Shown: piece after piece, positions 1 to 15,731 of the stretch
Layout: each line of letters opens with the position of its first letter
How positions within the stretch are numbered: the first letter of the stretch is position 1
DNA from: Propionicimonas sp.
Lineage (GTDB): Bacteria > Actinomycetota > Actinomycetes > Propionibacteriales > Propionibacteriaceae
Assembly: GCF_013791955.1 (NCBI RefSeq)
Contig: NZ_VMSW01000002.1
Strand: one strand, 5' to 3'
Length of the DNA stretch: 24,000 nucleotides
Made by a program: the position numbers and the translations under genes
Notes under the pieces: model-generated
The model's database searches: none
What the model saw: the letters and a program-made list of their open reading frames with translations, nothing else
What the model was told of the DNA's origin: nothing

Positions 1-63
1 GGGGGTTCGCCCGACCAGCTGCGGGAACTTTCGTGCGCCGGTGAACCACTTGGCCTCATTCAT
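1..63 (-). CDS. 5' end of a CDS that runs off the left window edge (function unknown)
   Basis: Minus-strand ATG at 63-61 lies 8 nt after the stop of the upstream gene (72). The frame reads MNEAKWFTGARKFPQLVGRTP with mostly G/C third positions. It is too short for the ORF track. Confidence 0.3.
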   Translation of the reverse strand, partial: MNEAKWFTGARKFPQLVGRTP

Positions 64-71
64 GACAGATC

Positions 72-347
72 TCAGATGTGCACAATGGTGCTGGGTGAGG
101 CCGGGTCAGCGGTCACCACGATCGCAGGCGCCGACTTGATGTCGGTCTCGACCTTCTTGGCGATGAAGGGGAGGGCGAACACGATCGCAACCACTAGGGC
201 CGCCCCCACGGCGCTGCCGATGATGCGCGCCAGCGCCCAATTACCCCTGGCACTGTTGATCAAAAAAAAGATTACGGCAAGAAGAGTCACGCCCCCCTTG
301 ACCGCAGCGTCGGTCTGTCCGGCCAAACTGTTGAACAAATCAAACAT
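72..347 (-). CDS. small membrane protein with two hydrophobic helices, part of the conjugation module
   Basis: 91-aa ORF with two hydrophobic stretches (GVTLLAVIFFLI and IIGSAVGAALVVAIVFALPFI). It starts 10 nt downstream of the TcpC-like gene and is co-oriented with it. Confidence 0.65.
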   Translation of the reverse strand: MFDLFNSLAGQTDAAVKGGVTLLAVIFFLINSARGNWALARIIGSAVGAALVVAIVFALPFIAKKVETDIKSAPAIVVTADPASPSTIVHI

Positions 348-357
348 CTCGTTCTCC

Positions 358-1356
358 TTACTTCTGCGTCGATGACGTCGACGGCGTACTGGGGGCGGGG
401 GAAGCTGTTACCGCGGGAGCAACACTGGGAGTAGCAGTGGGCTGCTTGGCGGCCAACAGTGGCGCGGACCGCACCTGTGACACTTCCCAACGGCCTGCGC
501 GGGCGGTCAAAGTCAGTGAGTACTGCACCGATACCGCCTGCTGGCCGCCCACCTGGGCAACGGCGGTCACCAACACATCGACTCGCGCGCCATCCGCCGG
601 GCTGTCCGGGATTTCGGAGTGAGCGGCCACCGAGCCGATCCGTACCGCAGTGAACGGAGCAGGCTGCACTGCAGTAATCGCTGCACGAGGTGCTACGACC
701 CGCGCAACATCACCACTACCGGCCAGATAGGCGGCCAGGAACTCCGTCGACGTTGTGACCACTGGGCTACTCGGTGGGACAGCAACCGAATAGTCCAGGG
801 CAGGGGCAGCAGCCGCGAGCGCAGTGCTAGGTACCTCCGCCGGCATTGCCACCGCGGAAACCGTCGAGCCGGCGACCTGCACCGGCAAAGTAAAGAAGCG
901 TCGAGACACCATGCGGGCATCGGTGACCGTGGCCGCCACCGTCACCGCCCACACCCCATTGCCAGCATCGACGTAACCGACCGGCATCGCATCAGCGACC
1001 TGCATCCCTGCCTCCGGCAGCATTTGCCCGCTTGAGGCTGGCAGCAGAGTGTGGACCAGGTCCTCCTGGCCGCGGGATGCACCCAGCCAGACAGTCACCG
1101 CCCTAGTCGCGAACTCGCCTGCGACCAGCTGCCGCGATTGAGCCTCACTGCTCAACCCCATAGCAGCCGAAGAAGGTGCGACCGGATGAGTGGCCTGCCA
1201 CATCGACACAGCAAACGCGACCGGGCCCAGCGCGATCGCGACCCACAACAGGCCCGTCACCGCAGTGCTGGCCATCTGGCTACCCATCGTCCACTGATGA
1301 CCGACGACTGCCGGATCCGCAGGGGCCTGCTCCGGTTTGCGGGAAAAGATCGTCAT
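358..1356 (-). CDS. TcpC-like conjugal transfer protein (membrane-anchored, extracytoplasmic)
   Basis: 332-aa ORF with GGAAGGG about 8 nt upstream of the ATG at 1356. It has an N-terminal TM helix (LLWVAIALGPVAFAVSMW), a soluble body and a Pro/Ser/Thr-rich tail. The architecture and context resemble TcpC-family proteins of Gram-positive T4SS elements. The family call is from memory, not a search. Confidence 0.6.
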   Translation of the reverse strand: MTIFSRKPEQAPADPAVVGHQWTMGSQMASTAVTGLLWVAIALGPVAFAVSMWQATHPVAPSSAAMGLSSEAQSRQLVAGEFATRAVTVWLGASRGQEDLVHTLLPASSGQMLPEAGMQVADAMPVGYVDAGNGVWAVTVAATVTDARMVSRRFFTLPVQVAGSTVSAVAMPAEVPSTALAAAAPALDYSVAVPPSSPVVTTSTEFLAAYLAGSGDVARVVAPRAAITAVQPAPFTAVRIGSVAAHSEIPDSPADGARVDVLVTAVAQVGGQQAVSVQYSLTLTARAGRWEVSQVRSAPLLAAKQPTATPSVAPAVTASPAPSTPSTSSTQK

Positions 1357-1607
1357 GCGATCGCCCTTCCGACAAGTTGAAGCGGTGGAGCTGCCACTGA
1401 GCCGGCTGCAGCCCCACCGCGATTAGAGGAAGCGAGCCCCCGATGGTGAGTGGATCTGCTCCCCCGAGATCCCCTCGACCCAGATGCCAGAACTCGGCGG
1501 ATGCGGGCCTCAGCCGGCTCAGACAAAGGCAGGGCAATCAGCACCCCAAGCTGATCGGCACCCCGCTTGTCCATTTCGGCCACTGATGGCCGGGCACCCA
1601 CACTCAT
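1353..1607 (-). CDS. hypothetical protein
   Basis: 84-aa ORF with GGAAGGAG 5 nt upstream of the ATG at 1607. Its stop overlaps the ATG of the next gene (ATGA at 1353-1356). Composition is only moderately protein-like. Confidence 0.45.
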   Translation of the reverse strand: MSVGARPSVAEMDKRGADQLGVLIALPLSEPAEARIRRVLASGSRGSRGSRSTHHRGLASSNRGGAAAGSVAAPPLQLVGRAIA

Positions 1608-1648
1608 CCGTGCTCCTTCCGTGAGCTCGCTTCACTCCTGGAAGGCAT

Positions 1649-1754
1649 AAATCCGGGGCTGATCTGACACCCAGACCAACCCAAAACCCCGATTCTCAGC
1701 GTTTTTTCAGGAAAAGGGGGGGTTTGGGCCAAATCGGGCAAGAAATCGGGCAAG
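1649..1754. promoter_or_regulatory. iteron-like repeats in a divergent intergenic region (candidate operator)
   Basis: A perfect tandem 12-mer AAATCGGGCAAG sits at 1731-1742 and 1743-1754. An inverted copy CCCCGATT is at 1687-1694 and a related AAATCCGGGG at 1649-1658. All lie between the divergent genes ending at 1607 (-) and starting at 1798 (+). Confidence 0.4.
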
Positions 1755-1797
1755 ACCCCCCCGAGATAGTGGACGCACCCCAACTCGAGGAGACCCC

Positions 1798-2613
1798 ATG
1801 CCCCCGACAACCACCACACCGCGCAAGTTCCGGACCCACCACGGCGACAACCCCGTGAACACCAAATCACCACTGTTCGACAAACTCTGCGGCGAATGGG
1901 TCAGCCTCAACACCGACCCCAACACAACGAACGCCACCCGACGCCTCGGCCAAAAACAACCCGCACTAGCCGAACACAACACACCCGGCGACATCGTCGA
2001 CGCGATCGACGCGGCCGACCACCTCGAAGCAGAGATCATGATCAGTGCGCTGCTGGAGTCGTTCCAGGATGGAGACCAGATCGCAGGCCGGATCCTGCTC
2101 CAGCAGTTCTTGCCATTCGTGGCTTCAATCACCCGAGCACCCAGACTTGGTTCAGACACCCAGTGGATTGAAGATCGCCGCCACATCGCCATCGCCGAGC
2201 TCTGGCACCTCGCGGCCACCATCGACATCGATCATTACCGCGGCCGGATCGTCTGCACCTTCACGTGGCGCCTTCGGCACCGCGCCGCCAGCACCGCAGC
2301 CGATGGTCGGCAGATCCCCTGGGGCGACAGCTCCGACTTCGACATCATCACCGAGACCACAAACGAAGAGGAACCACTGCTCTCCGAGCAGTACCGCCTC
2401 GCCCCGGTTCTCGCTTGGGCCCATAGCCAAAACATCATCACCCAGCCCGAGGTGGAGATGCTGACCATCATCTACATCGAGGGCAACCGCACCGACCATG
2501 TCGCCGCCCAGATGGGCCTCAAACCAGCCACGGTCAGCCAACGCTGCCACCGAGCGGTAAAACGGATCCAAGCCCACGTCGACCAAATCCCCGAACCCGC
2601 CGCCATCGCCTAA
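1798..2613 (+). CDS. sigma-70 family-like protein (region 4 HTH clear, region 2 degenerate)
   Basis: 271-aa ORF with GAGGAG 7 nt upstream. The C-terminus EVEMLTIIYIEGNRTDHVAAQMGLKPATVSQRCHRAVKRIQ matches the sigma region 4.2 HTH pattern. The N-terminal part is only loosely region-2-like. Confidence 0.7.
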   Translation: MPPTTTTPRKFRTHHGDNPVNTKSPLFDKLCGEWVSLNTDPNTTNATRRLGQKQPALAEHNTPGDIVDAIDAADHLEAEIMISALLESFQDGDQIAGRILLQQFLPFVASITRAPRLGSDTQWIEDRRHIAIAELWHLAATIDIDHYRGRIVCTFTWRLRHRAASTAADGRQIPWGDSSDFDIITETTNEEEPLLSEQYRLAPVLAWAHSQNIITQPEVEMLTIIYIEGNRTDHVAAQMGLKPATVSQRCHRAVKRIQAHVDQIPEPAAIA

Positions 2614-2623
2614 TCGAGCAGCC

Positions 2624-2968
2624 ATGACCCCACACCCACGAAGCAGGCCCATGCCCAGCCCAGCACCAGCGTTCTTCCCCCAGAAACTCCGCACCGCGAT
2701 CGACACCCGCGCCACAGACCAAACCCTCCGCCTAGACACCCCCGGCATCGCCATAGTCGACGTGCGTCAGCTGATGGACGACCTGGCCCACTTCGGCCCC
2801 CATCACTACCGCACCAAAGCCGAACGCCGCGCCTACCTCGAAGCCGTCCGCGACATCGCCATCCACGTCCAAGCAGCCACCTACACCCACCACGAATCCG
2901 ACGGCCACCTCGTACGAATCCACGGCCTCATCCGCGGCGTCCACACCAACAACGTCACCCACATCTGA
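2624..2968 (+). CDS. hypothetical protein
   Basis: 114-aa ORF starting 10 nt after the previous stop, co-oriented. No obvious SD. Confidence 0.5.
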   Translation: MTPHPRSRPMPSPAPAFFPQKLRTAIDTRATDQTLRLDTPGIAIVDVRQLMDDLAHFGPHHYRTKAERRAYLEAVRDIAIHVQAATYTHHESDGHLVRIHGLIRGVHTNNVTHI

Positions 2969-2978
2969 ACGGAGATCC

Positions 2979-3665
2979 ATGATTTCCAAACGCGCCGCAC
3001 GCCGCCTGCTACAACACCTGCAGGTCGAGTCGAACCCAACACACCCGACCCACGAACGATTGATCATCCGATCTGGCGAAGACCTCAACGACTTCCTATA
3101 CGACGCCGCACGGACTTTTCCCCGGTACGCCACCATCAGGCTCTACCTGCCACCGGTCCGATTCGGGCCGAATGTGTTCGCACGAACACGCCTCAACCTT
3201 CACGAGGGCAATGCGGTCATCGAAGCAGTGACCGTGCAGGATCCCGCCACGCCGCGGTGGATCACAACCCTCTACCAGCCCAGCACAGCCCTCGCCTACC
3301 CGGGCATCCAGATGGTCTTCCGCTCCGAACACATCACCGGCGCAGTCCCCGCAATCTTCAGCTATATCACCGGCTGGCTAGCCTGGCATACAGCAGCCAC
3401 CGGGCCCGTCACAGTGGCGATCGGTTACACCGCCACCACTGCGGCCTTGGCCGTAGTCGCCGTCCTGGGCGGCATCGTCGCCCCCCACCTGTACCGGACA
3501 CGCTGGTCCAAGACCCTGCCCGTCGACACAGCACAAGAACCAGGAACCTCAATCCTCACGACCCTACGAGACCACCCCAACACCGAACCCGCCGACATCT
3601 GGCGCCACGCCAACGAATACGCCGCCCTGCCTTCAACCCTCTACCGGCCCCACGACCTCCGATAA
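2979..3665 (+). CDS. hypothetical membrane protein
   Basis: 228-aa ORF with GGAG upstream. Hydrophobic segments include AIFSYITGWLAWH and VAIGYTATTAALAVVAVLGGIVA. Confidence 0.65.
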   Translation: MISKRAARRLLQHLQVESNPTHPTHERLIIRSGEDLNDFLYDAARTFPRYATIRLYLPPVRFGPNVFARTRLNLHEGNAVIEAVTVQDPATPRWITTLYQPSTALAYPGIQMVFRSEHITGAVPAIFSYITGWLAWHTAATGPVTVAIGYTATTAALAVVAVLGGIVAPHLYRTRWSKTLPVDTAQEPGTSILTTLRDHPNTEPADIWRHANEYAALPSTLYRPHDLR

Positions 3666-3810
3666 CCACCGTTTGTGGCGGCCCGCCGCACCCACTACTC
3701 CCCTATTTGCCGAGGGCCTTCCGCACCGTTTGCCGACTGATACCGAGCAGGACAGCGGCCCACCAGACACAACTAACAGCGCTGTCAGCGGCACCCAATA
3801 ACCTCACACC

Positions 3811-4047
3811 ATGGACTCCACCATCACCCGGGACGACATCGAGTTGATCACCAGACACAGCATGATCAACGACACCGCCCGGACCAGCACCTACACCCAA
3901 ACACGCGACCACGTGCTCGAGACGGTCAGCCGTAACCAGGCCAACGGGAACACTGAAGCCAACCTGCGGCTATTGATCACCGCACTCCGCGGCCAGAACC
4001 AGGCACTCAACACCCTCGTCCGCGCCATCAAGATCCCGGCGGCCTAG
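3811..4047 (+). CDS. hypothetical protein
   Basis: 78-aa ORF. Its stop lies 2 nt before the start of the next gene. Confidence 0.5.
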   Translation: MDSTITRDDIELITRHSMINDTARTSTYTQTRDHVLETVSRNQANGNTEANLRLLITALRGQNQALNTLVRAIKIPAA

Positions 4048-4049
4048 CC

Positions 4050-4376
4050 ATGCCAAACCAGCCAGGCCACAACGACACCGTGGTGCTCACCATCGCCCAG
4101 GTCGAGTACCACCCAGGCGGCTTCCCGGTCGGCACGATCACAACGATCACCACCGACACCGCCCACCTCTACAGCACCGCAGACGCCTGGGCACGAGAAC
4201 ACGTCCTCACCGAGACCGAAAGCCTCACCAGAGGCATCCGGCACCTACTCAACCCCACCACGCCACCCAAAGACGGCTTCGCCGGCCTCATCAACAAACC
4301 CACCGGCATCTTCCTCCTCGCGCAGTGGCCCTGGTGTATTCGCCTCCCCCGAGAGATCCAAGCCCTCCTGAGCTAG
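4050..4376 (+). CDS. hypothetical protein whose 5' end has a degraded second copy at 10759-10852
   Basis: 108-aa ORF. Nucleotides ~4056-4132 recur with one frameshifting indel at ~10777-10852. Confidence 0.6.
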   Translation: MPNQPGHNDTVVLTIAQVEYHPGGFPVGTITTITTDTAHLYSTADAWAREHVLTETESLTRGIRHLLNPTTPPKDGFAGLINKPTGIFLLAQWPWCIRLPREIQALLS

Positions 4377-4516
4377 GGCCAGAGGCTAGGCGCCAGCACT
4401 GACACCCCTGCCCGAAATCTTTACCGCACCCCTCGTCTGGGCCGGCGCTGATCGAGGTCGCCATTTCCGGCGTTGATCTGAGCATCGAGGCAGGCAACAG
4501 TCCTTCAACTACACCC

Positions 4517-4545
4517 TTGCCACATGTCAGGTTTCCTGACACTAT
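4517..4545 (+). promoter_or_regulatory. candidate promoter with an embedded palindromic operator
   Basis: TTGCCA (4517-4522), a 17-nt spacer, then CACTAT (4540-4545). The spacer contains the perfect inverted repeat TGTCAGG-TTT-CCTGACA (4525-4541). It sits in a 225-nt gap upstream of the 4602 operon. Confidence 0.35.
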
Positions 4546-4601
4546 TGAGTCCTCAAGAGGTCAGGCATCAGGCCAGACCGAAAGCCCCAAGGGAAAAAAT
4601 C

Positions 4602-4847
4602 ATGCCCGAGACCACCACCAGCCGGATCTACACCACCCTCGCCGATCTGGTCGATCAAGAGATCATCGGAGCGTTCGTCGAGTACGGCACCGACTACGAC
4701 ATCGACGGCCTAGTGCAGGCGCTCCGCGACGCGGACCACATCACCTACATCAACACCGTGCCCCTCGACCAGCAAGGCTTCCAACTGAGCATCGACTCCG
4801 ACACATTCTGGGCGCTGGCAGCCAAGTTCGATCGAGCAGCCAAGTGA
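4602..4847 (+). CDS. hypothetical protein
   Basis: The internal ATG at 4602 is preceded by AAGGGA. The 26 upstream codons of the listed ORF overlap the predicted promoter, so they were dropped. Product is 81 aa. Confidence 0.55.
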   Translation: MPETTTSRIYTTLADLVDQEIIGAFVEYGTDYDIDGLVQALRDADHITYINTVPLDQQGFQLSIDSDTFWALAAKFDRAAK

Positions 4848-5254
4848 GCATTGAGCTCGCCGAGCTGGCCCCCACTTCGGTGGGGGCCTCCCGCATGTCG
4901 GCGGCAGAGTTCCGCTGCCTGCGGGAATGGCTCGGTCTCACCACATCGTGGGTCGCCGAGCATGTCGGGGTCGCCGAGCGGTCGGTGCACAGGTGGGAAG
5001 CCGGGGCAATGCGCGTCCCGGAAGCGGTCGGGGCCAAAATGCTGCAGGTGTCCGAGGTCACCTACGACGCCCTGAATACCGCCGTGGACCATCTGATGGA
5101 TCTATCCGAGCCGTCGATCTGGACTTATCGCACCGACGATGACTATCGCACTCACCACCCAGAGCTGGACTGGCCAGCCTCCTGGCATCGGGCACTGTGC
5201 GCACGTATCGCCGACGAGGTCCCTGGACTTCGCATCGATTACTGGCATGGATGA
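4844..5254 (+). CDS. XRE-type HTH regulator, paralogous to the C-terminal two-thirds of the 6156 product
   Basis: GTG at 4844 overlaps the previous stop (GTGA); the alternative start is ATG 4895. HTH motif: FRCLREWLGLTTSWVAEHVGVAERSVHRWEAG. The N-terminal 109 codons of the listed 245-aa ORF are R/H/P-rich and were rejected. Confidence 0.65.
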   Translation: MSIELAELAPTSVGASRMSAAEFRCLREWLGLTTSWVAEHVGVAERSVHRWEAGAMRVPEAVGAKMLQVSEVTYDALNTAVDHLMDLSEPSIWTYRTDDDYRTHHPELDWPASWHRALCARIADEVPGLRIDYWHG

Positions 5255-6095
5255 TCTGCCGCGCCTAGTGGCCCGCCAATCTGGGTCCCGTCTGGTCACG
5301 CGCCGTGAAGCCGCCGACGATCTGGGGTACTCGGCAGCGTCGTTGGCCACGCTGATAAGCCGCTATCCGCAGCGATGGCCCCGGCCCGCTGCGATGCTGA
5401 GGGTGGGCAGGGTATGGCAGATGCTATGGGATCTGGACGAGCTCCAGTCGGCAGTGCCGCCGCTACGGGAGTCACGGATTGGTCGTGGATCCACGGTGTC
5501 CGAGTCAGACGGGATCATCAGGTGTCTGGAATGTGGCCTGCGGTTCCGCAACCTCGGGCGCCACCTCAACGCCGCCCACGACATGACAGCAGCGGAATAC
5601 CGATCCGCCCACCAACTGCCAGCGACGGCTGCGCTGATGGCTGACGCGCAGCGTGCCCAAGGGCACGACAGGATGATGGACGCCGACATCGCCCACCTGG
5701 CGAAATTCCGTACCCCTGAGCACCTGAACCAGATGCGCGCCGCCGCCATCGAGTCAATAAGGGTCACTGAGGACTATGCAGCAGTCAGGGCCGCACGAGC
5801 GGCGGGCAGGCGTTATGCGGTCCAAGTGATGCACGGAAAGCGCATGCTGGCCATCGATGACAAGGCCCGCCAGGCCGGATACGAGGGTATCGACGATGCG
5901 ATCCGGGCCACGCAGGCATTGGCGGGTACTGCTGCGGCAGCCAAAATCGGCATAGGTCACACCACCGTGCTGCGGCGCCGTGCGCAACTCGGCATCGCCA
6001 GCCCCCGCCGAAGGGCGCGGCGGTCAGTCGAGTCAGGAAATTCGTCCATCCCGCCCACCGCACGACCTAGCCAACACCAAACCAACCGTGATTAA
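5247..6095 (+). CDS. MucR/Ros-family zinc-finger regulator with extra HTH-like segments
   Basis: ATG 5247 overlaps the previous stop. The motif CLECGLRFRNLGRHLNAAHDMTAAEYRSAHQLP matches the C-x2-C...H-x3-4-H MucR/Ros signature. HTH-like stretches flank it: N-terminal (VTRREAADDLGYSAASLATLI) and C-terminal (AAAKIGIGHTTVLRRRAQLGI). Confidence 0.8.
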   Translation: MDDLPRLVARQSGSRLVTRREAADDLGYSAASLATLISRYPQRWPRPAAMLRVGRVWQMLWDLDELQSAVPPLRESRIGRGSTVSESDGIIRCLECGLRFRNLGRHLNAAHDMTAAEYRSAHQLPATAALMADAQRAQGHDRMMDADIAHLAKFRTPEHLNQMRAAAIESIRVTEDYAAVRAARAAGRRYAVQVMHGKRMLAIDDKARQAGYEGIDDAIRATQALAGTAAAAKIGIGHTTVLRRRAQLGIASPRRRARRSVESGNSSIPPTARPSQHQTNRD

Positions 6096-6155
6096 ATAAT
6101 CACACCGAGTAAGGCTTCAGGCCACGGCTCGCCCTCACGAGAGGACCACCACCCC

Positions 6156-6728
6156 ATGACCGACTACACCCAATGCCCCGAATGCGGCAGCGATGACCTC
6201 ACCATCAACACCTGCGAGGCCTGGTGTGGCGACTGCAGCTGGCACATCACCGACCAAGCCCCCGCCTTCGACCAGTACCGCACAGCTGAACTCGCACACC
6301 GCGACACCATCACCCAACTGGTGGACTCCATCATCGACACACAGCTCGCACCGATCACCCCCACCGCCATCGAGCTCCGCGCACGCCGTGAAGCTCTCGG
6401 CCTCAGCCAACAACAACTCGCCAGTGCCATTCACGTCGCGCAATCAACGCTGGCTCAGTGGGAATCCGGTAAGCGACGCATCCCGGGCATACGCCCCGAG
6501 CTGAACGTGCTCGAAGCCCTGGTGGAGGACTTCATCGACGACCTGGTCGACCAGGTCAACACCGGCGGAGCTGAAAGTCTGCGGACATACCTCGCCGACA
6601 CCGACTGGTGGGCCACCGATCCAGTCGTGAACGCATTGGCCCTCCCAGCGGCACTACACCGCGTCGCGGCCGCCAGAGCTGCAGCAAAGCTGCACCGCAG
6701 CGGCACCACAATCAGCATCACGACGTAG
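6156..6728 (+). CDS. zinc-ribbon + XRE-type HTH regulator
   Basis: 190-aa ORF with GAGAGGA upstream. N-terminal CPECG...CEAWCGDC, then ELRARREALGLSQQQLASAIHVAQSTLAQWESGKRRIP. The C-terminal region parallels that of the 4844 product (TYLADTDWW vs TYRTDDDY; LPAALHRVAAARAA vs WPASWHRALCARIA). Confidence 0.8.
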   Translation: MTDYTQCPECGSDDLTINTCEAWCGDCSWHITDQAPAFDQYRTAELAHRDTITQLVDSIIDTQLAPITPTAIELRARREALGLSQQQLASAIHVAQSTLAQWESGKRRIPGIRPELNVLEALVEDFIDDLVDQVNTGGAESLRTYLADTDWWATDPVVNALALPAALHRVAAARAAAKLHRSGTTISITT

Positions 6729-6802
6729 CTCGGCGACGCTCGGTGCGATGGATCGTCGTTTCTCAGCGCACCGGGGCCACTACTGAGACCAGTATCCACA
6801 TA

Positions 6803-6856
6803 CTCTCTAGGCTTATCTAAGCCTCTCTAGGCTCGCACCTTAGACAGGCGTATATT
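6803..6856 (+). promoter_or_regulatory. AT-rich promoter/operator region for the ATPase cassette, possibly leaderless
   Basis: Direct repeat CTCTCTAGGCT at 6803-6813 and 6823-6833 (20-nt phasing). Perfect inverted repeat AGGCTTA-TC-TAAGCCT at 6809-6824. TATATT at 6851-6856 ends 7 nt before the ATG at 6864. GC content is clearly lower than in the surrounding sequence. Confidence 0.4.
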
Positions 6857-6863
6857 CTGCTAG

Positions 6864-8027
6864 ATGGAGCCCGAACTCAACCCGTACCGGCCCGGCGCAG
6901 GCCTACTCCCCCCGGAGCTCGCCGGACGCGAAGAGCACCTCAACCACTTTGAACAGCTCATCATCCGCGCCAAACACCGAACCATCGACCGCGCCCTGAT
7001 CATTTCCGGCCTACGCGGCGTCGGCAAGACCGCCCTGATGACTCGCTTCTCCCAAATGGCCGACCAGCACCGCTGGATCTACATCACCACCGAGGGCCAA
7101 GCCAACGACACCGCAGCACACGAAGTACGCCGCCGCCTCGGCGCCGAGATCCAAGCCGCACTTGTCCGATTCAGCCTCAAAGCCCGACTAGACGACGCAC
7201 TCCGGCACCTCAGCGCCCTCGCCGGCCAGTTCTCCCTCAGCCTCGGCCCCGTCACCATCGAATCCAAGCCCGCAGCAACCGGCCTGCTCGACCTCGACGT
7301 CGAAACGCTCACCCTCGCCATCGCCAAAGAAGCCCAGGTCCGCGAAGCCGCCTTCGCGATCTTCGTCGACGAACTCCAAGACCTCGACCACGACATGCTC
7401 ACCGCACTCCTGGTCGCGCAACACAAGGCACAGCAACAAAACCTGCCGTTCTACCTCATCGGCGCCGGCCTACCCAGCCTCCCCGCGATCCTCACCAACG
7501 CCAAGTCCTACGCCGAGCGACTGTTCCGCTACTCCACCGTCGGGCCACTCAACGAGCAGCACGCCACCGAAGCCCTCACAGTCCCCGCAGAAAAGGTCGG
7601 CTGCTCCTACTCACCCGACGCCCTCGCCACCATCCTCACCGCCTCCGGCGGCTACCCCTACTTCCTTCAGGAGTACGGCAAGGCAATCTGGGACTTCGCC
7701 GATGAAAAGACCTTCACCGATCTCGACGCACTCGCCGCGGTCGAAATCGGCCGCGAACAGCTGGACTCCGGCTTCTTCCCATCCCGCTGGCTACGGGCGT
7801 CCGACCGCGAGCGCGAATACATGACCACCATGTCAGTCGTCGGCGCCGGCAAACCGGCATCCACCACAGCGATCGCCAAAGACATGAGCGCAGCACCCAG
7901 CAAGCTCAGCCCCATCCGACAATCCCTCATCGCCAAAGGCCTCATCTACGCCCCTGAACGCGGCTTCGTCGACTTCTCCGTCCCAGGCATGGCCGACTAC
8001 ATCGACCGCGCCTGGATCGGCGACTAA
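6864..8027 (+). CDS. AAA-type ATPase (archaeal-ATPase/AAA_16-like) with a probable C-terminal winged helix
   Basis: 387-aa ORF. N-terminal NPYRPGAGLLPPELAGREEHL, Walker A GLRGVGKTALM and Walker B IFVDELQDL. The C-terminal ~70 aa are helix-rich. Confidence 0.85.
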   Translation: MEPELNPYRPGAGLLPPELAGREEHLNHFEQLIIRAKHRTIDRALIISGLRGVGKTALMTRFSQMADQHRWIYITTEGQANDTAAHEVRRRLGAEIQAALVRFSLKARLDDALRHLSALAGQFSLSLGPVTIESKPAATGLLDLDVETLTLAIAKEAQVREAAFAIFVDELQDLDHDMLTALLVAQHKAQQQNLPFYLIGAGLPSLPAILTNAKSYAERLFRYSTVGPLNEQHATEALTVPAEKVGCSYSPDALATILTASGGYPYFLQEYGKAIWDFADEKTFTDLDALAAVEIGREQLDSGFFPSRWLRASDREREYMTTMSVVGAGKPASTTAIAKDMSAAPSKLSPIRQSLIAKGLIYAPERGFVDFSVPGMADYIDRAWIGD

Positions 8028-8109
8028 GGCAGCCCAAATCGGTCAGCGGGCCCGCGTGTCAGCGCCACGTGGTCGAATAGCCGCAACCAGCGACCACAGG
8101 AAACCGCAA

Positions 8110-8925
8110 ATGCCTCTCACCGTTCTGCACGGGGACCAGCTTGTCCACTCGTGGGACTACCACGATCTGGATGACTGGCAGGCGCTCCGCGACGACTCAC
8201 AGAAGGTCCGGAAGCTGCACTTCCCCTGCTGCACCTCACCGGTCGTGCTCAAAGTGTCGATCAACGAAATACCATTCTTCGCCCATGCACCTGGCCGAGC
8301 CTGCACCCAATCGCAGCAGGCCGGGAGACGAGAATCGCCTGAGCATCAGGCGTTGAAATACGCGGTCGCATTCCACCTCTCCAAGATCACCGGCTGGACC
8401 GTACGAACAGAGCACCCAGCACCAGACCGGACCTGGCGAGCCGACGTACTCGCCACACACACAAATGGCCGCCAGCTGGCCGTGGAACCCCAACTCGCCC
8501 GACAGTCAGCAGCAGCCTTCACGCACAGGAGCACCCGCTACCTACAGGCAGGGATCATGCCCGCCTGGATCACAACAGGCCTACCCACCGAAGTCGAGAT
8601 GCGACAGGTGGCTCACTTCCAGATTCCCGATCGACAGCTGCTACGAGCCCACACTTCCGCCATCCTCAACACGATCGGTGCGACCGCCCAATGGGGGACG
8701 AAAGAAGAACTCACCCTTGCCGATTACCTCGACCGGATGGCCGCCCCTGACGCAGACTGGCCCTGGACGCTCGAAGCGATCCGAGACCTACGAGTACCTC
8801 CCCCGAAGCGCCAGGTCCAATGGCCCGAAATGGGCCCGCCACCAGCCACCGAAGCCGACCGGATCAAAGCGATGTACACGCGGCTAGTGGCCGCGGCCCA
8901 GATAGATCAGAACCACCAGCGGTAG
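8110..8925 (+). CDS. CoiA-like PD-(D/E)xK family nuclease
   Basis: ATG 8110 with AGGAAA upstream (alternative GTG 8056). Motifs appear in CoiA order: PCC...FFAH, ESPEHQALK, RADVLA, LAVEPQLARQS, RSTRYLQAGIMPAWI. Confidence 0.75.
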   Translation: MPLTVLHGDQLVHSWDYHDLDDWQALRDDSQKVRKLHFPCCTSPVVLKVSINEIPFFAHAPGRACTQSQQAGRRESPEHQALKYAVAFHLSKITGWTVRTEHPAPDRTWRADVLATHTNGRQLAVEPQLARQSAAAFTHRSTRYLQAGIMPAWITTGLPTEVEMRQVAHFQIPDRQLLRAHTSAILNTIGATAQWGTKEELTLADYLDRMAAPDADWPWTLEAIRDLRVPPPKRQVQWPEMGPPPATEADRIKAMYTRLVAAAQIDQNHQR

Positions 8926-9590
8926 TGTTCAACACCGTGCCAATCCATCACCCCGAGCAGAACGCGCTCCAGTCGGCCTACCGACAAAATGGCACCCACG
9001 ACGTCGCATACCTTGACGAGTCCTACCGCATCGAACCAAGCGGCCAGACCTACTACATCATCACCGCAGCAGTCATCGAACACGACCAACGCGACATCGT
9101 CCGCCGCGACATCGTCAGAATCGCCGCCACAACCTACTGGCACACAACCAACGCACTCCAAACAAATGCAGGGCGCACCAAAGCCCGCGAACTACTCGAC
9201 TACCTCGGCGGCCCCTCCGGCACCGAGACCGCATTCATCGCCCACCAACACCCCATCAACGCAGACGACCACGACGGCGAAGCCGCCCGAGAGACCTGCC
9301 TCACCGCGATCCTCCACCACATCAACAAAAACCTGAATGCCGACCTGTTCGTCCTCGAGCGCCGACTCACCCGCATGATGGAAAACCGTGACGCGCGCAC
9401 CAAGAAGATCGCCATCACCCAAGGGCTCATCAGACCCAGCGCACGACTCTTCCAGACCAGCCCGAGCACGGAACCGCTTCTCTGGATCCCAGATCTCATC
9501 TGCAGCGCCTACCGCCACAGCATCACCCAGCAGACTCCGGACCTGTACCAACGCATCAACGCGCTGTGCACGGTCCTCCCCCAAACATGA
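8925..9590 (+). CDS. DUF3800-like protein (tentative)
   Basis: GTG 8925 overlaps the last base of the previous stop codon (TAG, 8923-8925). N-terminal AYLDESY and C-terminal LLWIPDLICSAY resemble the DE...D motifs of DUF3800. Upstream codons of the listed ORF overlap the CoiA-like gene and were dropped. Confidence 0.55.
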   Translation: MFNTVPIHHPEQNALQSAYRQNGTHDVAYLDESYRIEPSGQTYYIITAAVIEHDQRDIVRRDIVRIAATTYWHTTNALQTNAGRTKARELLDYLGGPSGTETAFIAHQHPINADDHDGEAARETCLTAILHHINKNLNADLFVLERRLTRMMENRDARTKKIAITQGLIRPSARLFQTSPSTEPLLWIPDLICSAYRHSITQQTPDLYQRINALCTVLPQT

Positions 9591-9594
9591 AGCA

Positions 9595-9624
9595 GCCCCT
9601 GGCTGCCGCAGCTACACCAGGGGC
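9595..9624 (+). terminator. stem-loop just after the cassette stop (possible terminator, no U-tract)
   Basis: GCCCCTGG (9595-9602) pairs with CCAGGGGC (9617-9624) around a 14-nt loop. It starts 5 nt after the stop at 9590. Confidence 0.3.
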
Positions 9625-9899
9625 CAACAACTCTCACCTAGCGGGAGAAGAAGTCTTGCTCACAGACCACGATACCCGATAGCCCGAATCCTGTCAGCAT
9701 CTCCGAAACCGACAGTCCCTCGCACGCGTGGCCCGCTGCAGCAGGCGACCACGTACCGCCTACTGCTCGCCGAGGACCGCATGGGCCCAAAAGAGCAGGG
9801 ACCGAGCGAGCCGACTAGCGCACCAGGCCTTCACTAGCCACCGTTGACTGAGTGCCGGTGCCGCTGCCAGCAGGTTGCGGTGGGGGTCCGGGTTATGTC

Positions 9900-9928
9900 T
9901 TGCATTACTCGGTGTTTTGTCCTACAAT
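9900..9928 (+). promoter_or_regulatory. sigma-70-type promoter for a leaderless toxin-antitoxin transcript
   Basis: TTGCAT (9900-9905), 17 nt, then TACAAT (9923-9928). The GTG at 9935 lies 7 nt after the -10 box, and there is no SD. Confidence 0.45.
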
Positions 9929-9934
9929 ATTGCC

Positions 9935-10219
9935 GTGGCAGTGAAATGGACCGAAAGCGCAGACAAGCGAGGCATCGACCACAGCGACGCCCTCAACGCC
10001 ATCGCATCAGCCACATACGCCATCCAAGGATTCGGGGACTCAAGGGTTCACACCAGCGGAAGGATCGACCTCTACATCGGCCCAACTCAAGACGGGCAGA
10101 CCGTGCTCGAAGTCATGACCGAGACCACCGGCCGCGACGTCACCGTCTTCCACGTAATGCCCGTGCGGCAGAAGATCCTCGACGCCGCACGGTCCCAACT
10201 CCAAAAGAGGAACAAATGA
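9935..10219 (+). CDS. type II toxin-antitoxin toxin candidate (BrnT/DUF497-like, tentative)
   Basis: 94 aa from GTG 9935 (alternative GTG 9941). It reads KWTESADKRGIDHSDALNAI ... TVFHVMPVRQKI, and its stop overlaps the antitoxin ATG (ATGA at 10216-10219). The toxin-first order fits BrnTA-type pairs. The family call is uncertain. Confidence 0.6.
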   Translation: MAVKWTESADKRGIDHSDALNAIASATYAIQGFGDSRVHTSGRIDLYIGPTQDGQTVLEVMTETTGRDVTVFHVMPVRQKILDAARSQLQKRNK

Positions 10220-10542
10220 CCACCCACACAGACCTGAACGACTTCGCCGAAAACCTAACGGCCCGCGACTTCGCTGGCACCACAGCACACACCGGCGAAC
10301 AAGCCACCACACTGGGCCGCGCCCTACTAGAAAACGCCCTCGGCGGCCCCGAAGGCGTAGACAAAGCACTCGGCGGACGCCCGTCACTGAGCACCGCAGG
10401 CATATCACCATCGCGCACCGTGCGATTGCCCCGCGACCTAGATTCAGCCCTGATCAACCTCGCACGAGCGGAAGGACGCAAACCCAGCGCCATCGTGCGC
10501 GACGCCGTTGCCGACTACCTAGCCCAACACCACGCCAGCTGA
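10216..10542 (+). CDS. ribbon-helix-helix (CopG-like) antitoxin
   Basis: 108 aa. The C-terminal RTVRLPRDLDSALINLARAEGRKPSAIVRDAVADYLAQH fits the RHH pattern. It is translationally coupled to the upstream small gene. Confidence 0.75.
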   Translation: MTTHTDLNDFAENLTARDFAGTTAHTGEQATTLGRALLENALGGPEGVDKALGGRPSLSTAGISPSRTVRLPRDLDSALINLARAEGRKPSAIVRDAVADYLAQHHAS

Positions 10543-10669
10543 CGGAGTACCTACGCCCGTACATAGGAGGAAACTCCTGATGCTGGGACCGCACCTCACG
10601 TGCGTGGGCCGCGCCAACACACGCCAGGGATCGACACAGCTACCCCAAACCACCTACACTGTTTGACGC

Positions 10670-10859: not shown

Positions 10860-10975
10860 CGCGGCGGGCCGGGGGCGCGCGGAAAGAAATCGTGCCGCGC
10901 GGGCCGCCACTGTTTTTCCCTGACCGTCCCTCACGTGCCGGGGCCGCTGCGGCACTAATCCAAAGCGTGTTCCAT
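10860..10975 (-). pseudogene. decayed 5' fragment of a second SARP/BTAD-like gene
   Basis: The minus-strand ATG at 10975 sits in the same SD-ATG context as the intact gene at 13319, but a TAG follows after 6 codons. Downstream nucleotides still resemble the 13319 gene (ATTAGTG..CCGGCAC; GGCAC..CTTCGCG..GGCCC). Confidence 0.35.
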
Positions 10976-11035
10976 CAGGACCCCTTCCTCTCATTCAGGA
11001 GGTGTCTCTTCAGGGCCTCGGTCGGTGCTTCCAAC
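10932..11035. repeat. direct repeat copy X (partner Y at 13287-13382)
   Basis: By-eye alignment gives roughly 75-85% identity over ~100 nt. Shared blocks include CACTAATC, TCCATCAGG, CATT[C/G]AG, GG[A/T]GGTGTC and GGGCCTCG..CGGTGCTTCCAAC. Homology ends at the same CCAAC in both copies. Confidence 0.6.
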
Positions 11036-12457
11036 AGTCTCAACAAACGTTTGGTTCGTTGTTGACCCGGCCAGGACTGGTTGGTCCTGTCGGGTAGCCC
11101 GACTGTGTGGGCGTGTTTGTCGCTCGCGGAATCGGCCGGGGTCGCATCCCCATCGGGTGGCGAACTGGCAGTCGAGATGGGCGAGAACCGCGTCCTTGGA
11201 CATGTGCTGGTCCCGCCCGGCCAGCGAACGTCGCTGGAGGATGACGCGGGAGGCGTTGATGTCGGCGTGGACGCCTTTGCCGCAGAACCCGCACCGGAAC
11301 CGGTCTTGGGTCTTGCGGTTGGTCTTGGTGGTGTAGCCGCAACCAGAGCATTGACGGCTGGTGTGGGCCGGATTCACCGCCGTGACGGTGATGCCGTGAT
11401 CTTCAGTGAGGGCCGCAACTTTGGCGGTAACCGCGGCCCGGCCGGCGATGGTGAGTATCCGGTTCATCCGACGGGACATGCCACCGCCGCGGAAGTCGAG
11501 TTTCTCGACCACGAGCTCGGCAACATTGTCGGTGGCGATCTTGTTGAGGACCCGGCCTACTTCGTTACGGACGTGGCGCCGGAGCCGACGAACCATGGCC
11601 CGGTACCGTTTCGACTGGCTGAGGCGGATGCCTTGGCGTTGCAGGCTGGCGGCAAGGGCCGTCAGTTGGGTGTCGGCGGTGCGGAGCCAGCGGTACAACT
11701 GTTGTCCATGGCGTCTGCCGTCGCTGGTAGCGAACAGGTTCGCCAGCCCCCAGTCCAGACCGAGGACCTTGCCTTCGGACCGTGGGGCCGCGATCGGGGA
11801 GTGTTTGATCACCCGATAGACGATGGGGCCGTGGTCGGGAACATGAACCTGGAGGTAGTTGGCCCGTTGCCCGGCCGCGGCTTGCTCGTAGGGGTTGGTC
11901 CCGAACGGGATCCGGACCGGCCTGGTTCCCGGCACCCCCGAGATCCGTACCCACGTCTGGTGGGGGCCGTTCGGGTTGGCCGGCACCTCATGGGTGGCGA
12001 TCGGACCGTCCATGTTCATCGTCCGGACCGTGGCCAGGTGTGGGAACGGCAGGGTAGTGGACAACAGCCGTTCGACCATCGGTCCTAGTACCGGATGCCC
12101 GAACCACCGCTTAGCTTTGTTGTCCTGATACAGCGCGATCCGGTCCTCATCAGCAACGTCGAGGTCACAGATCAACGCCCTAACTGCGATCACCGCCAGT
12201 TCGCGCCAGGACTCGATAGCGGCGTTGACCTGGTTAACCACACTCTTCCACTGCCGCTGCGACAGATAGCCGGGGAAGGCGCGGGTGTCGAGATAGCCAG
12301 GCCGGATACCTTCCCGGAGCCGCCGCACCACGATCAGTTGAGTGTGAACCAGGCCACGTTGCCACCAGGGCAGAAGATCACGGACCCGCTGCTCCTTGCC
12401 CGGGTTCGCGTGTGACGGTAGTAGATAGGCACGGGTCCGCATCCGGCTATTGCTCAT
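10991..12457 (-). CDS. tnpB: TnpB-like RNA-guided endonuclease (IS200/IS605-family OrfB type), catalytic triad intact
   Basis: 488 aa from ATG 12457 (GGAGG 9 nt upstream). RuvC-I KVLGLDWGLANL, RuvC-II ELVVEKLDF, zinc ribbon CSGCG...CGFCG and RuvC-III VHADINASRV are present. The 57 further upstream codons of the listed ORF are R/P/W-rich and were rejected. The last 15 codons lie inside repeat X. Confidence 0.85.
   Translation of the reverse strand: MSNSRMRTRAYLLPSHANPGKEQRVRDLLPWWQRGLVHTQLIVVRRLREGIRPGYLDTRAFPGYLSQRQWKSVVNQVNAAIESWRELAVIAVRALICDLDVADEDRIALYQDNKAKRWFGHPVLGPMVERLLSTTLPFPHLATVRTMNMDGPIATHEVPANPNGPHQTWVRISGVPGTRPVRIPFGTNPYEQAAAGQRANYLQVHVPDHGPIVYRVIKHSPIAAPRSEGKVLGLDWGLANLFATSDGRRHGQQLYRWLRTADTQLTALAASLQRQGIRLSQSKRYRAMVRRLRRHVRNEVGRVLNKIATDNVAELVVEKLDFRGGGMSRRMNRILTIAGRAAVTAKVAALTEDHGITVTAVNPAHTSRQCSGCGYTTKTNRKTQDRFRCGFCGKGVHADINASRVILQRRSLAGRDQHMSKDAVLAHLDCQFATRWGCDPGRFRERQTRPHSRATRQDQPVLAGSTTNQTFVETVGSTDRGPEETPPE
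11036..11250 (-). ncRNA. putative omega-RNA (reRNA) scaffold overlapping the tnpB 3' end (inferred, not demonstrated)
   Basis: Two adjacent hairpins sit at the 3' extreme. One is TCAACAA/TTGTTGA (11040-11065). The other is CCCG-CAGGAC/GTCCTG-CGGG (11066-11094). They end 4 nt before the X/Y homology breakpoint. The tnpB ORF continues ~86 codons past RuvC-III, as expected where an omega-RNA overlaps the gene. Confidence 0.25.
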
Positions 12458-12665
12458 CGGCGTCGGCCTCCAAGGCGGCGACTGCCGCAGCGGTTCGGCG
12501 TTTGGCCGACCGGAGTCCGTACCGGCGAGCGGCCGAAGCCGTAGATGATCGAGACGAAGTCCAGCGGGCCTCGGCGGCCAGCCAGAACTGATGCGGGCCG
12601 ATCTCCTGGCCCACCCGCCCCGGGTCACATGTGGCCACTTGCCGCAGAGGATAGACCGTGGACAT
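12447..12665 (-). CDS. small hypothetical protein between the SARP-like gene and tnpB
   Basis: 72-aa ORF with ~72% G/C at third positions by my count. ATG 12665 lies 12 nt after the SARP-like stop, and GAGG overlaps that stop. Its own stop overlaps the tnpB start by 11 nt. I recognised no motif. Confidence 0.35.
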   Translation of the reverse strand: MSTVYPLRQVATCDPGRVGQEIGPHQFWLAAEARWTSSRSSTASAARRYGLRSAKRRTAAAVAALEADADEQ

Positions 12666-15147: not shown

Positions 15148-15731
15148 CCGGAGACCACCTGCCCACCGGCTTGCCACACTTTGAAGGCCTTCGCACCCTT
15201 GGCCTTGCGTAGCTCGTAGGTGCGGAGGAGGTAGGGGACGTGGACGGCGCTGTCTGTGATCTCAGCACCCTTTTTGTCCGTCACGCGGGTTGCCGTCTGG
15301 TCCTTGCAGAAGGTGACGGTGATGGACGTCGAGGTCCCGGCTGTGGTCGGGTCGCCGACTTTGGTGGTGACGATCTTCTGGTCACCCGTCTCCGACCACC
15401 CCGCCTGATTCCACTGGTTGCGGGCGGTGAGTGCGGCCTGGATCATCGGCGCGTCGCTGATCGGCTTGAGGATCTTGATCATGGTGAGCTGGCCGGTCAT
15501 TCGGGGGTCGTGTCGCATCCGCGCCAGCAGATTCTCAAAGGTGGTGGCGTTGGCGAGGGCTGTCGCTTGGTCCGGGCTGTAGGTGGGCGTCGGGTTCGGC
15601 GACGGCACTGGGGTGGCCGAAGGGGTGGCGGTCGGGTCGATCACCGCTTGGGAGGTCGTGCATCCAGCGAGGAGCACGGCGGCGAGCGCCGCAGCGGCGG
15701 CTGCGGTCCAAATGCGGGGGCGGGTACTCAT
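15141..15731 (-). CDS. lipoprotein of unknown function
   Basis: 196 aa from ATG 15731 (ATGA overlap with the previous stop). Lipobox LLAGC follows a signal-like N-terminus, then a Pro/Thr-rich linker. Confidence 0.75.
   Translation of the reverse strand: MSTRPRIWTAAAAAALAAVLLAGCTTSQAVIDPTATPSATPVPSPNPTPTYSPDQATALANATTFENLLARMRHDPRMTGQLTMIKILKPISDAPMIQAALTARNQWNQAGWSETGDQKIVTTKVGDPTTAGTSTSITVTFCKDQTATRVTDKKGAEITDSAVHVPYLLRTYELRKAKGAKAFKVWQAGGQVVSGC

Follow-up and report, generated by a model that had tools for sequence, protein, structure and literature searches.

Within a stretch of 24,000 nucleotides (nt) from Propionicimonas sp. (contig NZ_VMSW01000002.1 of assembly GCF_013791955.1; hereafter the window), three neighbouring genes, here called g1, g2 and g3, encode an AAA+ ATPase, a CoiA-like nuclease and a divergent DUF3800 protein, respectively. 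An earlier note, made from the sequence alone, had read them as one cassette with a promoter of its own and as a candidate defence or exclusion module. Our analysis led us to conclude that the trio is probably a set of three single-gene modules, each mobile in its own right, that have come to lie side by side recently and by chance in a variable cargo hotspot, which in this family of actinobacterial conjugative elements is flanked by Xre/Ros-type regulators and a TnpB-like gene. In the neighbourhoods inspected (±5-10 kb around each homolog), each of the three genes was found intact without the other two in relatives, and the complete trio was present only on identical or near-identical copies of the contig. 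A conserved order in unrelated genomes, as expected of a multigene defence system, was not found, with relatives each lacking one or two members. The co-occurrence check that the note itself had named came out negative from the g1, g2 and g3 sides, and the reading as one system of three components is not supported.

Distribution and domain architecture of the three genes

g1 (6864-8027, + strand, ATG start) encodes a protein of 387 amino acids (aa), g2 (8110-8925, +, ATG start, TAG stop at 8923-8925) one of 271 aa and g3 (8925-9590, +, GTG start at 8925) one of 221 aa. The close linkage of the three same-strand genes described earlier was confirmed by these coordinates, with a gap of 82 nt between g1 and g2 (8028-8109) and a 1-nt overlap between the TAG of g2 and the GTG of g3. 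Independent gene calls on identical contigs returned identical coordinates for all three genes, and the GTG start of g3 is consistent with the N-termini of its homologs. Eight nt upstream of g2 lies AGGAAA, positioned as a ribosome-binding site.

Judged from its sequence, g2 is a CoiA-like endonuclease that combines a Zn-ribbon with a PD-(D/E)xK core. Pfam searches bore out the domain assignments of the earlier note for this protein, with both CoiA families (PF06054/PF25164) above their cut-offs (CoiA_nuc, E = 1.5e-10, 41.9 bits, cut-off 20.3; CoiA_N, 26.8 bits, cut-off 26.3) as well as for g1 (AAA_16). The N-terminal CCHC Zn-ribbon (C40, C41, H59, C65) and the nuclease core (E75, D112, E126-x-Q128) are invariant in seven g2 homologs spanning 35-100% identity. 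The protein is rare, with only 8 homolog clusters among 5.8 billion, and its relatives stand in very different neighbourhoods. Three sibling elements carry orthologs at 80-82%: in L001 (82%, same backbone), a 202-aa gene lies upstream and two opposite-strand genes lie downstream, with neither an ATPase nor g3; in L100 (82%), two ATPase genes come before g2, first g1 (82%) and then a second AAA_16 ATPase, 25% identical to g1, whose end is 9 nt from g2; and in L102 (80%), g2 directly follows an Xre-type helix-turn-helix (HTH) gene and is succeeded by a repeat array, again without an ATPase. The distant homolog of L004 (35%) is found near a TraG-like coupling protein. Other orthologs sit in defence-island neighbourhoods, directly adjoining either a type III restriction-modification (RM) methyltransferase and restriction enzyme (73%; L005/L006/L007, L005:1791-6229) or a complete Azaca system with ZacA, ZacB and ZacC (67%; L008/L009, L008:2119-8439; PADLOC E down to 0), while a 37% homolog in L003 stands beside a Dcm methylase, a GIY-YIG protein and Vsr. 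Distant CoiA-family genes were also found on about 100 plasmids from several phyla, and their neighbours are not constant. Because the Zn-ribbon and the nuclease residues are invariant across the individual g2 loci named above, g2 looks functional without a fixed partner.

Two of these sibling loci hold further traces of ATPase genes. In L001, a 38-codon relic of the g1 C-terminus (74%; L001:1735-1848) was found by a divergent Xre HTH gene about 6 kb from g2, which we take as sequence evidence of g1 loss and rearrangement in this sibling element. The second AAA_16 ATPase of L100 (L100:2408-3529, +, 373 aa, 25% to g1), placed between g1 and g2, has an AT-rich putative promoter of its own at 2355-2407 (ATATAA twice, TATAAA).

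g3 is best described as a divergent member of DUF3800 whose predicted fold resembles that of RNase H2. The earlier note had called this assignment weak, and rightly so: DUF3800 (PF12686) is the sole Pfam match of g3 and reaches 17.5-18.1 bits, under the gathering cut-off of 21 bits, so that the link holds at the level of fold and motifs rather than by score. Among 105 divergent members of the g3 family, 24 match DUF3800 (best 6.7e-8), and another family appears only once (a weak YbjQ_1 match). The conserved acidic residues are D31-E32, E145, D156, E183 and D190, with D31, E32, D156 and D190 invariant or nearly so in the family. The structural model (predicted local distance difference test, pLDDT, 88.8) gave RNase HII, H3 and H2A as top matches, with E down to 8e-6 and template modelling (TM) scores of 0.47-0.58, and a 37% homolog carries an NCBI DUF3800 annotation.

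The g3 family comprises 769 representatives, and g3 homologs fall into 18 clusters. Orthologs at about 60% identity occur in the sibling elements L016/L017 and L019 without g1 and without g2, and another (L111, about 60%) lies in a chromosomal BioY/RapZ/WhiA neighbourhood, likewise without g1 and g2. In addition, 28 actinobacterial plasmids carry g3 homologs at 32-41% identity that are paired with unrelated genes. On Mycobacterium avium/intracellulare plasmids (L108:3397-5654, L110:1084-3251), the 37% homolog follows a gene of about 500 aa without a Pfam match; the two overlap by 1 nt in one case and stand beside parA on mobilizable plasmids of 18-32 kb, and they may form a conserved two-gene unit. 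The ~500-aa gene was considered as a possible relative of g1 or g2 and rejected as unrelated. Scans of viral contigs did not find relatives of g2 or g3.

g1 is a stand-alone AAA+ ATPase of the ORC/Cdc6 or ATPase_2 type with a C-terminal winged helix. Besides AAA_16 (E = 1.9e-13, 51.7 bits, cut-off 32.6), it matches AAA_22 and ATPase_2, the latter with 26 bits against a cut-off of 33.2, and TIGR02928 with 16 bits. The Walker A motif is G49-LRGVGK55T and the Walker B motif F167-VDELQD173; in the family alignment, the GVGKT and hhhhDE Walker motifs, GYPYFLQ and the C-terminal winged helix are invariant. Its N-terminal NPF/NPY...GR motif is typical of ATPase_2 and Orc1-Cdc6-type families. The structural model (pLDDT 85.6) was closest to RuvB, Orc1/Cdc6 and Pyrococcus PAB2304 (2qen, TM 0.56/0.62), an ATPase_2 (PF01637)/Orc1-Cdc6-type protein with which g1 shares the AAA+ core, the helical lid and the winged helix; sequence similarity to PAB2304 and ATPase_2 is marginal, however, and the g1 family differs in being bacterial, solo and preceded by a leaderless-type promoter. 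With 387 aa holding only ATPase and winged helix, g1 does not have the architecture of STAND/Avs-type sensors, and its matches to nSTAND1 (E = 0.03) and Avs4 (E = 0.019) are both confined to the P-loop. A search of NCBIfam gave no informative names, and PDB sequence searches of the g1, g2 and g3 proteins were uninformative.

The number of g1 homologs exceeds 7,875, those listed and named being mostly from Actinomycetota and about 390 aa long. When one genome per species was scanned, at least 527 candidate stretches came up, and 80 of these loci were retrieved; relatives of g2 or g3 were found within 5 kb of none of these 80. The largest neighbour cluster shared among the g1 loci was an acyl-CoA dehydrogenase (7/80), 40 of 75 g1 homologs are followed by a gene of the opposite orientation, and defence families were rare among the neighbours. 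A 62% homolog adjoins the mraZ/dcw cluster. By their genomic context, the relatives of g1 are thus solo genes in housekeeping neighbourhoods.

Promoter region of g1

The region upstream of g1 (6803-6863, +) carries a -10 box together with direct and inverted repeats. With a GC content of 0.469 (6800-6863) against 0.649 for the window, it falls into the lowest 0.4% of 64-nt windows. Reading of the sequence confirmed the AT-rich character, the 20-nt-phased direct repeats (CTCTCTAGGCT at 6803-6813 and 6823-6833) and the TATATT box (6851-6856), which ends 7 nt before the g1 ATG. The inverted repeat reported earlier is present as well (AGGCTTA-TC-TAAGCCT, 6809-6824, with 7-nt arms), and calling it a perfect palindrome slightly overstated it, as the 2-nt centre is non-palindromic. 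Another, operator-like inverted repeat, TCTAGG (6826-6831) ... CTTAGA (6839-6844), overlaps the -35 region, and the promoter region packs 3 of the 31 CTAG sites of the window into 54 nt. The sibling locus L100 keeps the core TAGACAGGCGTATATT(C/T)TGCTAGATG and the 20-nt-phased TCTAG, its counterpart of the operator-like repeat being TCTAGC...CCTAGA.

A predicted promoter is present, as the earlier note had proposed; that it belongs to the cassette did not hold. Because a -10 box at leaderless distance occurs across the g1 family, with a TANNNT box ending 5-9 nt ahead of the start codon, ATG or GTG, in 70 of 76 loci (most at 6-7 nt; background 0.8% per position), the predicted promoter is to be regarded as a trait of the g1 family. 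Such a spacing between -10 box and start codon is tied to leaderless mRNAs in actinobacterial transcription, and the position of TATATT implies that the putative g1 transcript is leaderless. The 45 nt upstream of g1-family genes are AT-rich and often hold an inverted repeat (half-sites of 6 bp) that stops a few bases short of the -10 box, for example TTATGG-N8-CCATAA in Rhodococcus and TTCTAG-N8-CTAGAA in Dactylosporangium. Inverted repeats with perfect 6-bp arms were found in 31% of loci and in 6.5-11% of controls. A looser test allowing up to one mismatch in the 6-bp arms (76% versus 61-71% in controls) was not significant, and the idea of a universal operator was toned down since only perfect arms are enriched. 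The ~60 nt upstream of g1 homologs in L020-L099 are AT-rich with clade-specific inverted or phased TA-containing repeats. As the half-sites vary by clade and the neighbouring genes are not conserved, the winged helix of g1 itself would be the likeliest binder of the inverted repeat, amounting to autoregulation.

Genomic setting and cargo hotspot

The sequence of the window also occurs, unchanged, in GenBank contig JAHIJR010000089.1 (assembly GCA_018897675.1) and in several metagenomic contigs some 75 kb long. Upstream of the trio, it encodes TcpC-like and AAA_10 (VirB4-like) conjugation proteins, two Aca2/YdiL-type HTH proteins and a Ros/MucR protein; downstream follow a 114-aa gene with an RHH/RelB-like (ribbon-helix-helix) gene, a TnpB-like gene, a 956-aa BTAD protein and Tad-type secretion genes. 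Judged by the conjugation genes upstream, the trio is carried on a conjugative element, in line with the mobile-element setting assumed before, and the toxin-antitoxin pair and TnpB that had been named as neighbours were partly right, as an RHH/RelB-like pair and a TnpB-like gene do follow. A near-identity search of the DNA of 6000-10500 against plasmids and phages gave no match.

Directly after the g3 stop codon lies a weak hairpin, GCAGCC-CCT-GGCTGC (9592-9606, +; -10.6 kcal/mol, z = -1.4). The stem-loop noted previously thus exists, and it lacks a + strand T-run, so that it is not a canonical intrinsic terminator of the + strand; no + strand terminator was found in 6000-10600.

In sibling elements, at about 80% identity, the stretch between an Xre HTH gene and a TnpB-like gene is variable. 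It holds g1, g2 and g3 followed by the 114-aa and RHH genes in the window, g1, the second ATPase and g2 in L100, sortase, surface-protein and MarR genes and then g2 in L001, and other genes followed by a g3-like gene and a second DUF3800-like paralog in L016. In L102, g2 is joined by a 45-nt relic of the g3 5' end that is fused to the array, a remnant that by its sequence shows gain and loss at the hotspot.

The sibling hotspots end in a CRISPR-like array with the 28-nt repeat GACCGTCCCTCGCGTGCGTGGGCCGCTG, 33-nt unique spacers, a 61-nt period and 3-6 copies (L102:6871-7203, L100:4375-4524, L001:9955-10158, L016:10146-10295 and also L016:5213-5301). No significant hairpin of its own was found for the repeat. 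Between the final repeat and the TnpB-like stop codon there are 0-1 nt in L100, L001 and L016 and 4 nt in L102; these array-associated TnpB-like genes encode about 530 aa and are 74% alike between L016 and L100 and 92% between L100 and L102. Spacer 1 of L100 matches L102:12129-12161 and L001:15099-15131 at 33/33 positions and the window at 30/33 (16205-16237, -), the latter within the 956-aa BTAD gene (15728-18598). One L016 spacer matches its own backbone at 32/33 (L016:13115-13147), and L102 spacers match L100, L001 and L102 itself with 4-5 mismatches. Taken at face value, these matches look like RNA-guided competition between related elements, or self-regulation, and the arrays with their spacer matches support viewing the region as a conflict locus.

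All that is left of the array in the window are three degenerate solo repeats, irregularly spaced (all +). The first (9711-9738) forms the 3' boundary of the trio's cargo hotspot, and together with the second (10587-10612) it brackets the 114-aa and RHH pair (9875-10542); the third (10922-10949) comes within 42 nt of the TnpB-like gene (10991-12628, -), on the side of its 3' end. The bracketed pair consists of a 114-aa gene without a family match (9875-10219, +) and a 108-aa RHH/RelB-like gene (10216-10542, +) that overlap by 4 nt in a toxin-first layout, arranged as if the pair had been inserted into or captured by the former array. The TnpB-like protein matches Pfam Cas12f1-like_TNB and OrfB_IS605, its best PDB sequence match is Cas12f, and its RuvC D-E-D residues and Zn finger look intact. 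It was considered as the counterpart of the array-associated effectors in siblings and rejected, as BLASTP gave no meaningful similarity to the L100 effector; the TnpB-like effector seems to have been replaced in the window element.

Some features upstream of the trio should also be recorded. The two Aca2/YdiL-like HTH proteins and the Ros/MucR-type Zn-finger protein are encoded at 4517-5254, 5139-6095 and 6156-6728. One of these HTH proteins, of 190 aa, combines an N-terminal CxxC...CxxC motif with a sub-threshold match to the MqsA family (TIGR03830, residues 13-108, 24.1 bits with a cut-off of 61.8), and it is kept in siblings (57%) directly upstream of g1 or g2. Furthermore, the + strand of 1-10500 shows a strong, sustained skew towards C and A (GC skew to -0.37, AT skew to +0.37) that exceeds the usual coding-strand bias and reverses after about 11000, where the gene strand switches.

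Comparison with known systems

Regarding named defence systems, the statement in the earlier note that it recognised none was sustained. Searches of PADLOC-DB v2 gave no match for g2 or g3 at E <= 1, and for g1 only weak matches limited to the P-loop, the best being PDC-S01 (E = 1.9e-4, residues 38-76). By analogy, the closest precedent for an ATPase combined with a CoiA-like protein is PD-lambda-4, a validated two-gene anti-phage system from mobile DNA of E. coli (Vassallo et al. 2022), in which PD-lambda-4A matches ATPase_2, AAA_35 and NB-ARC and PD-lambda-4B the N-terminal Zn-ribbon of CoiA (PMC9519451). The note had described CoiA proteins as usually discussed under competence rather than defence; this view needs correction in light of PD-lambda-4. 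The domain logic is shared, as g1 is AAA_16/ATPase_2-like and g2 carries CoiA_N. The NTPase domain starts near residue 224 in PD-lambda-4A and at residue 18 in g1, however, PD-lambda-4B matched only the N-terminal 66 residues of CoiA whereas g2 also has the nuclease core, and the pairing of g1 with g2 is not conserved. No PADLOC model matched g1 beyond the P-loop or g2, a comparison in which the PD-lambda-4 content of the library is unconfirmed.

CoiA itself is a structure-specific endonuclease of single-stranded DNA (ssDNA) and D-loops reported as restricted to Bacillota (10.1101/2024.02.06.579203). g2 has both CoiA domains, CoiA_N and the PD-(D/E)xK core of CoiA_nuc, and the catalytic E...D...ExQ motif. 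It differs in its host, being encoded on an actinobacterial conjugative element without a competence context whereas CoiA belongs to the competence regulon of Bacillota and acts with RadA, and it is shorter (271 aa) with an unrelated C-terminal half. DUF3800 proteins are RNase H2-like and serve as effectors of type VII retrons (PMC7736814) and as accessories of V-A2 and VI-F CRISPR loci (PMC10910872, PMC12669027). g3 resembles them in its N-terminal DE, its C-terminal xxD motif, the RNase H2-like fold and the acidic DE..E..D set, and it differs in its sub-cut-off score, in the lack of an adjacent reverse transcriptase and of a visible fusion to tetratricopeptide repeats, and in belonging to a separate, mostly actinobacterial subfamily. 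A type VII retron would have a reverse transcriptase and an msr/msd RNA beside the DUF3800 gene; no reverse transcriptase domain was found among the window genes, and Rfam, including its DUF3800-associated RNA motifs, gave nothing at gathering score near g3 and only chance-level matches at E <= 5.

Proposed mode of action and alternative explanations

If the trio is a mosaic of separately mobile genes, as we favour, the three genes are nonetheless probably read from one promoter in the window. Guided by the TATATT -10 box, RNA polymerase would take the A of the g1 start codon as the first transcribed base, giving a leaderless mRNA, and the inverted repeat over the -35 region would act as operator, most plausibly bound by the winged helix of g1 or, alternatively, by the upstream Xre regulator encoded at 6156-6728. 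As no terminator lies between the genes, read-through would reach g2, with AGGAAA as its putative ribosome-binding site, and g3, coupled through the TAGTG overlap. The products would then act independently: g1 as an ATP-dependent DNA-binding switch, g2 as a structure-specific DNA endonuclease by analogy with the cleavage of ssDNA and D-loops by CoiA, and g3 as an RNase H-like nuclease, with g2 and g3 most likely serving conflicts with incoming DNA such as phages or competing elements. A defence or exclusion role of single genes is plausible; g2 orthologs adjoin type III RM and Azaca systems. The earlier proposal of an anti-phage or anti-plasmid architecture remains plausible for individual genes and found no support for the trio.

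Several observations weigh against this mosaic. The window and L100 represent two element variants that both have g1 and g2 next to each other, and the other AAA_16 ATPase placed just before g2 in L100 could mean that an ATPase partner is favoured. The L102 relic suggests that at least two lineages descend from an element in which g2 and g3 were already joined, and the 1-nt overlap of these genes suggests selection for co-expression. An ATPase_2-like NTPase paired with a CoiA-like protein is, moreover, a validated defence system (PMC9519451), and it is possible that partners are encoded in trans beyond ±5-10 kb. All sibling elements are metagenomic and known from sequence, and autoregulation by g1 is something we infer, its inverted repeat not being universal.

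The adjacency of g1 and g2 could be explained by a two-gene nucleoside triphosphatase (NTPase)-nuclease defence system, made up of g1, or an interchangeable AAA_16/ATPase_2 paralog, and g2, with g3 as an optional add-on. As in the pair logic of PD-lambda-4, sensing or licensing would fall to the ATPase, and the cleavage of invading DNA to the CoiA-like nuclease. Consistent with this are the order in the window, the succession of g1, a second ATPase and g2 in L100, the g1 relic in L001, the protection conferred in E. coli by the PD-lambda-4A/4B domain combination (PMC9519451) and the frequency of nuclease-NTPase couples among defence designs (10.1101/2025.07.10.664194). We nevertheless consider this pairing rather unlikely: g2 is intact without an adjoining ATPase in L102, L001, L005/L006/L007, L008/L009, L003 and L004, CoiA-like neighbours are missing from all 80 g1-family loci, the PADLOC profiles are silent on g2 and touch g1 only in its P-loop, and the promoter type found throughout the g1 family is that of a monocistronic gene. 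In a modular variant, g2 would be the constant effector, acting alone or licensed by an upstream AAA_16/ATPase_2-type ATPase, and g3 would again be optional; this variant, too, we hold to be unlikely. Gabija, Hachiman, Azaca and similar systems resemble the trio in that a P-loop NTPase gene adjoins a nuclease gene on mobile DNA, but no hidden Markov model of these systems matches the trio and the partnership is not conserved; Azaca is a separate system beside a g2 ortholog rather than the trio's counterpart. An obligate anti-phage or anti-plasmid system of ATPase, nuclease and DUF3800 protein under its own promoter would account for the tight spacing, the single promoter without an internal terminator and the mobile setting near other conflict genes. 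Its restriction to identical or near-identical contigs, with relatives each lacking at least one member, and the absence of PADLOC matches make it the kind of system we regard as extremely improbable.

Two further explanations give the genes duties other than stand-alone defence. g2 and g3, or one of them, could be accessories of the neighbouring TnpB-derived CRISPR-like locus, the PD-(D/E)xK nuclease aiding spacer uptake in the manner of Cas4 and the DUF3800 nuclease aiding interference or guide processing. The distance between g2 and the array is 0-1.2 kb in L100, L102 and L001, g3-like genes stand beside it in L016/L017, DUF3800 accessories are on record for V-A2 and VI-F loci (PMC12669027, PMC10910872), and cas1 and cas2 were absent from the Pfam matches of called genes around the arrays, where no search was aimed at them. 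Yet L016 has an array without g2, L100, L102 and L001 have arrays without g3, and the repeat is absent at the loci of 67-73% g2 and 32-59% g3 homologs (searched with the window repeat consensus only), so that the stable association with effector and array seen in class 2 CRISPR accessories was not found. Since the window array is degenerate and its TnpB of an unrelated lineage while g2 and g3 are intact, the state of the window argues against a dependence of either gene on the RNA-guided system of the array, and a role as accessory appears highly improbable.

The genes might instead serve the element's own DNA transactions, with g1 as an ORC-like initiator on the AT-rich repeats, g2 resolving recombination intermediates of transferred ssDNA and g3 removing RNA primers. 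An ORC/Cdc6-like protein with AT-rich repeats upstream resembles archaeal layouts of origin and initiator, CoiA has been described as a D-loop resolvase for incoming ssDNA (10.1101/2024.02.06.579203), and g3 homologs adjoin parA on small Mycobacterium plasmids. Relatives of g1 with the same promoter are, however, dispersed over chromosomes in housekeeping surroundings that show no other plasmid functions, siblings that keep the conjugation backbone can do without each of the three genes, and g2 orthologs occur in restriction and Azaca neighbourhoods, which makes such a maintenance function quite improbable. We thus return to the mosaic of separately mobile cargo genes as the likely explanation.

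Implications

In itself, the finding is an ordinary one: uncharacterised members of known families have been brought together by cargo shuffling. It keeps a false new three-gene defence system, proposed from gene spacing alone, out of the catalogues, and it provides a worked example of an actinobacterial conjugative-element cargo hotspot that shuffles single-gene nucleases. Were the modular reading true, the PD-lambda-4 design would reach into Actinomycetota and into warfare between conjugative elements. The rare actinobacterial CoiA-like nuclease, found in restriction and Azaca neighbourhoods, is a cheap one-gene candidate for defence. The by-products are of greater interest. One is the family-wide leaderless promoter: the conserved, operator-bearing promoter offers a handle on the solo ORC-like ATPases of Actinomycetota, a very large and uncharacterised family. 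The other is the TnpB-like genes with CRISPR-like mini-arrays, whose spacers match sibling conjugative elements.

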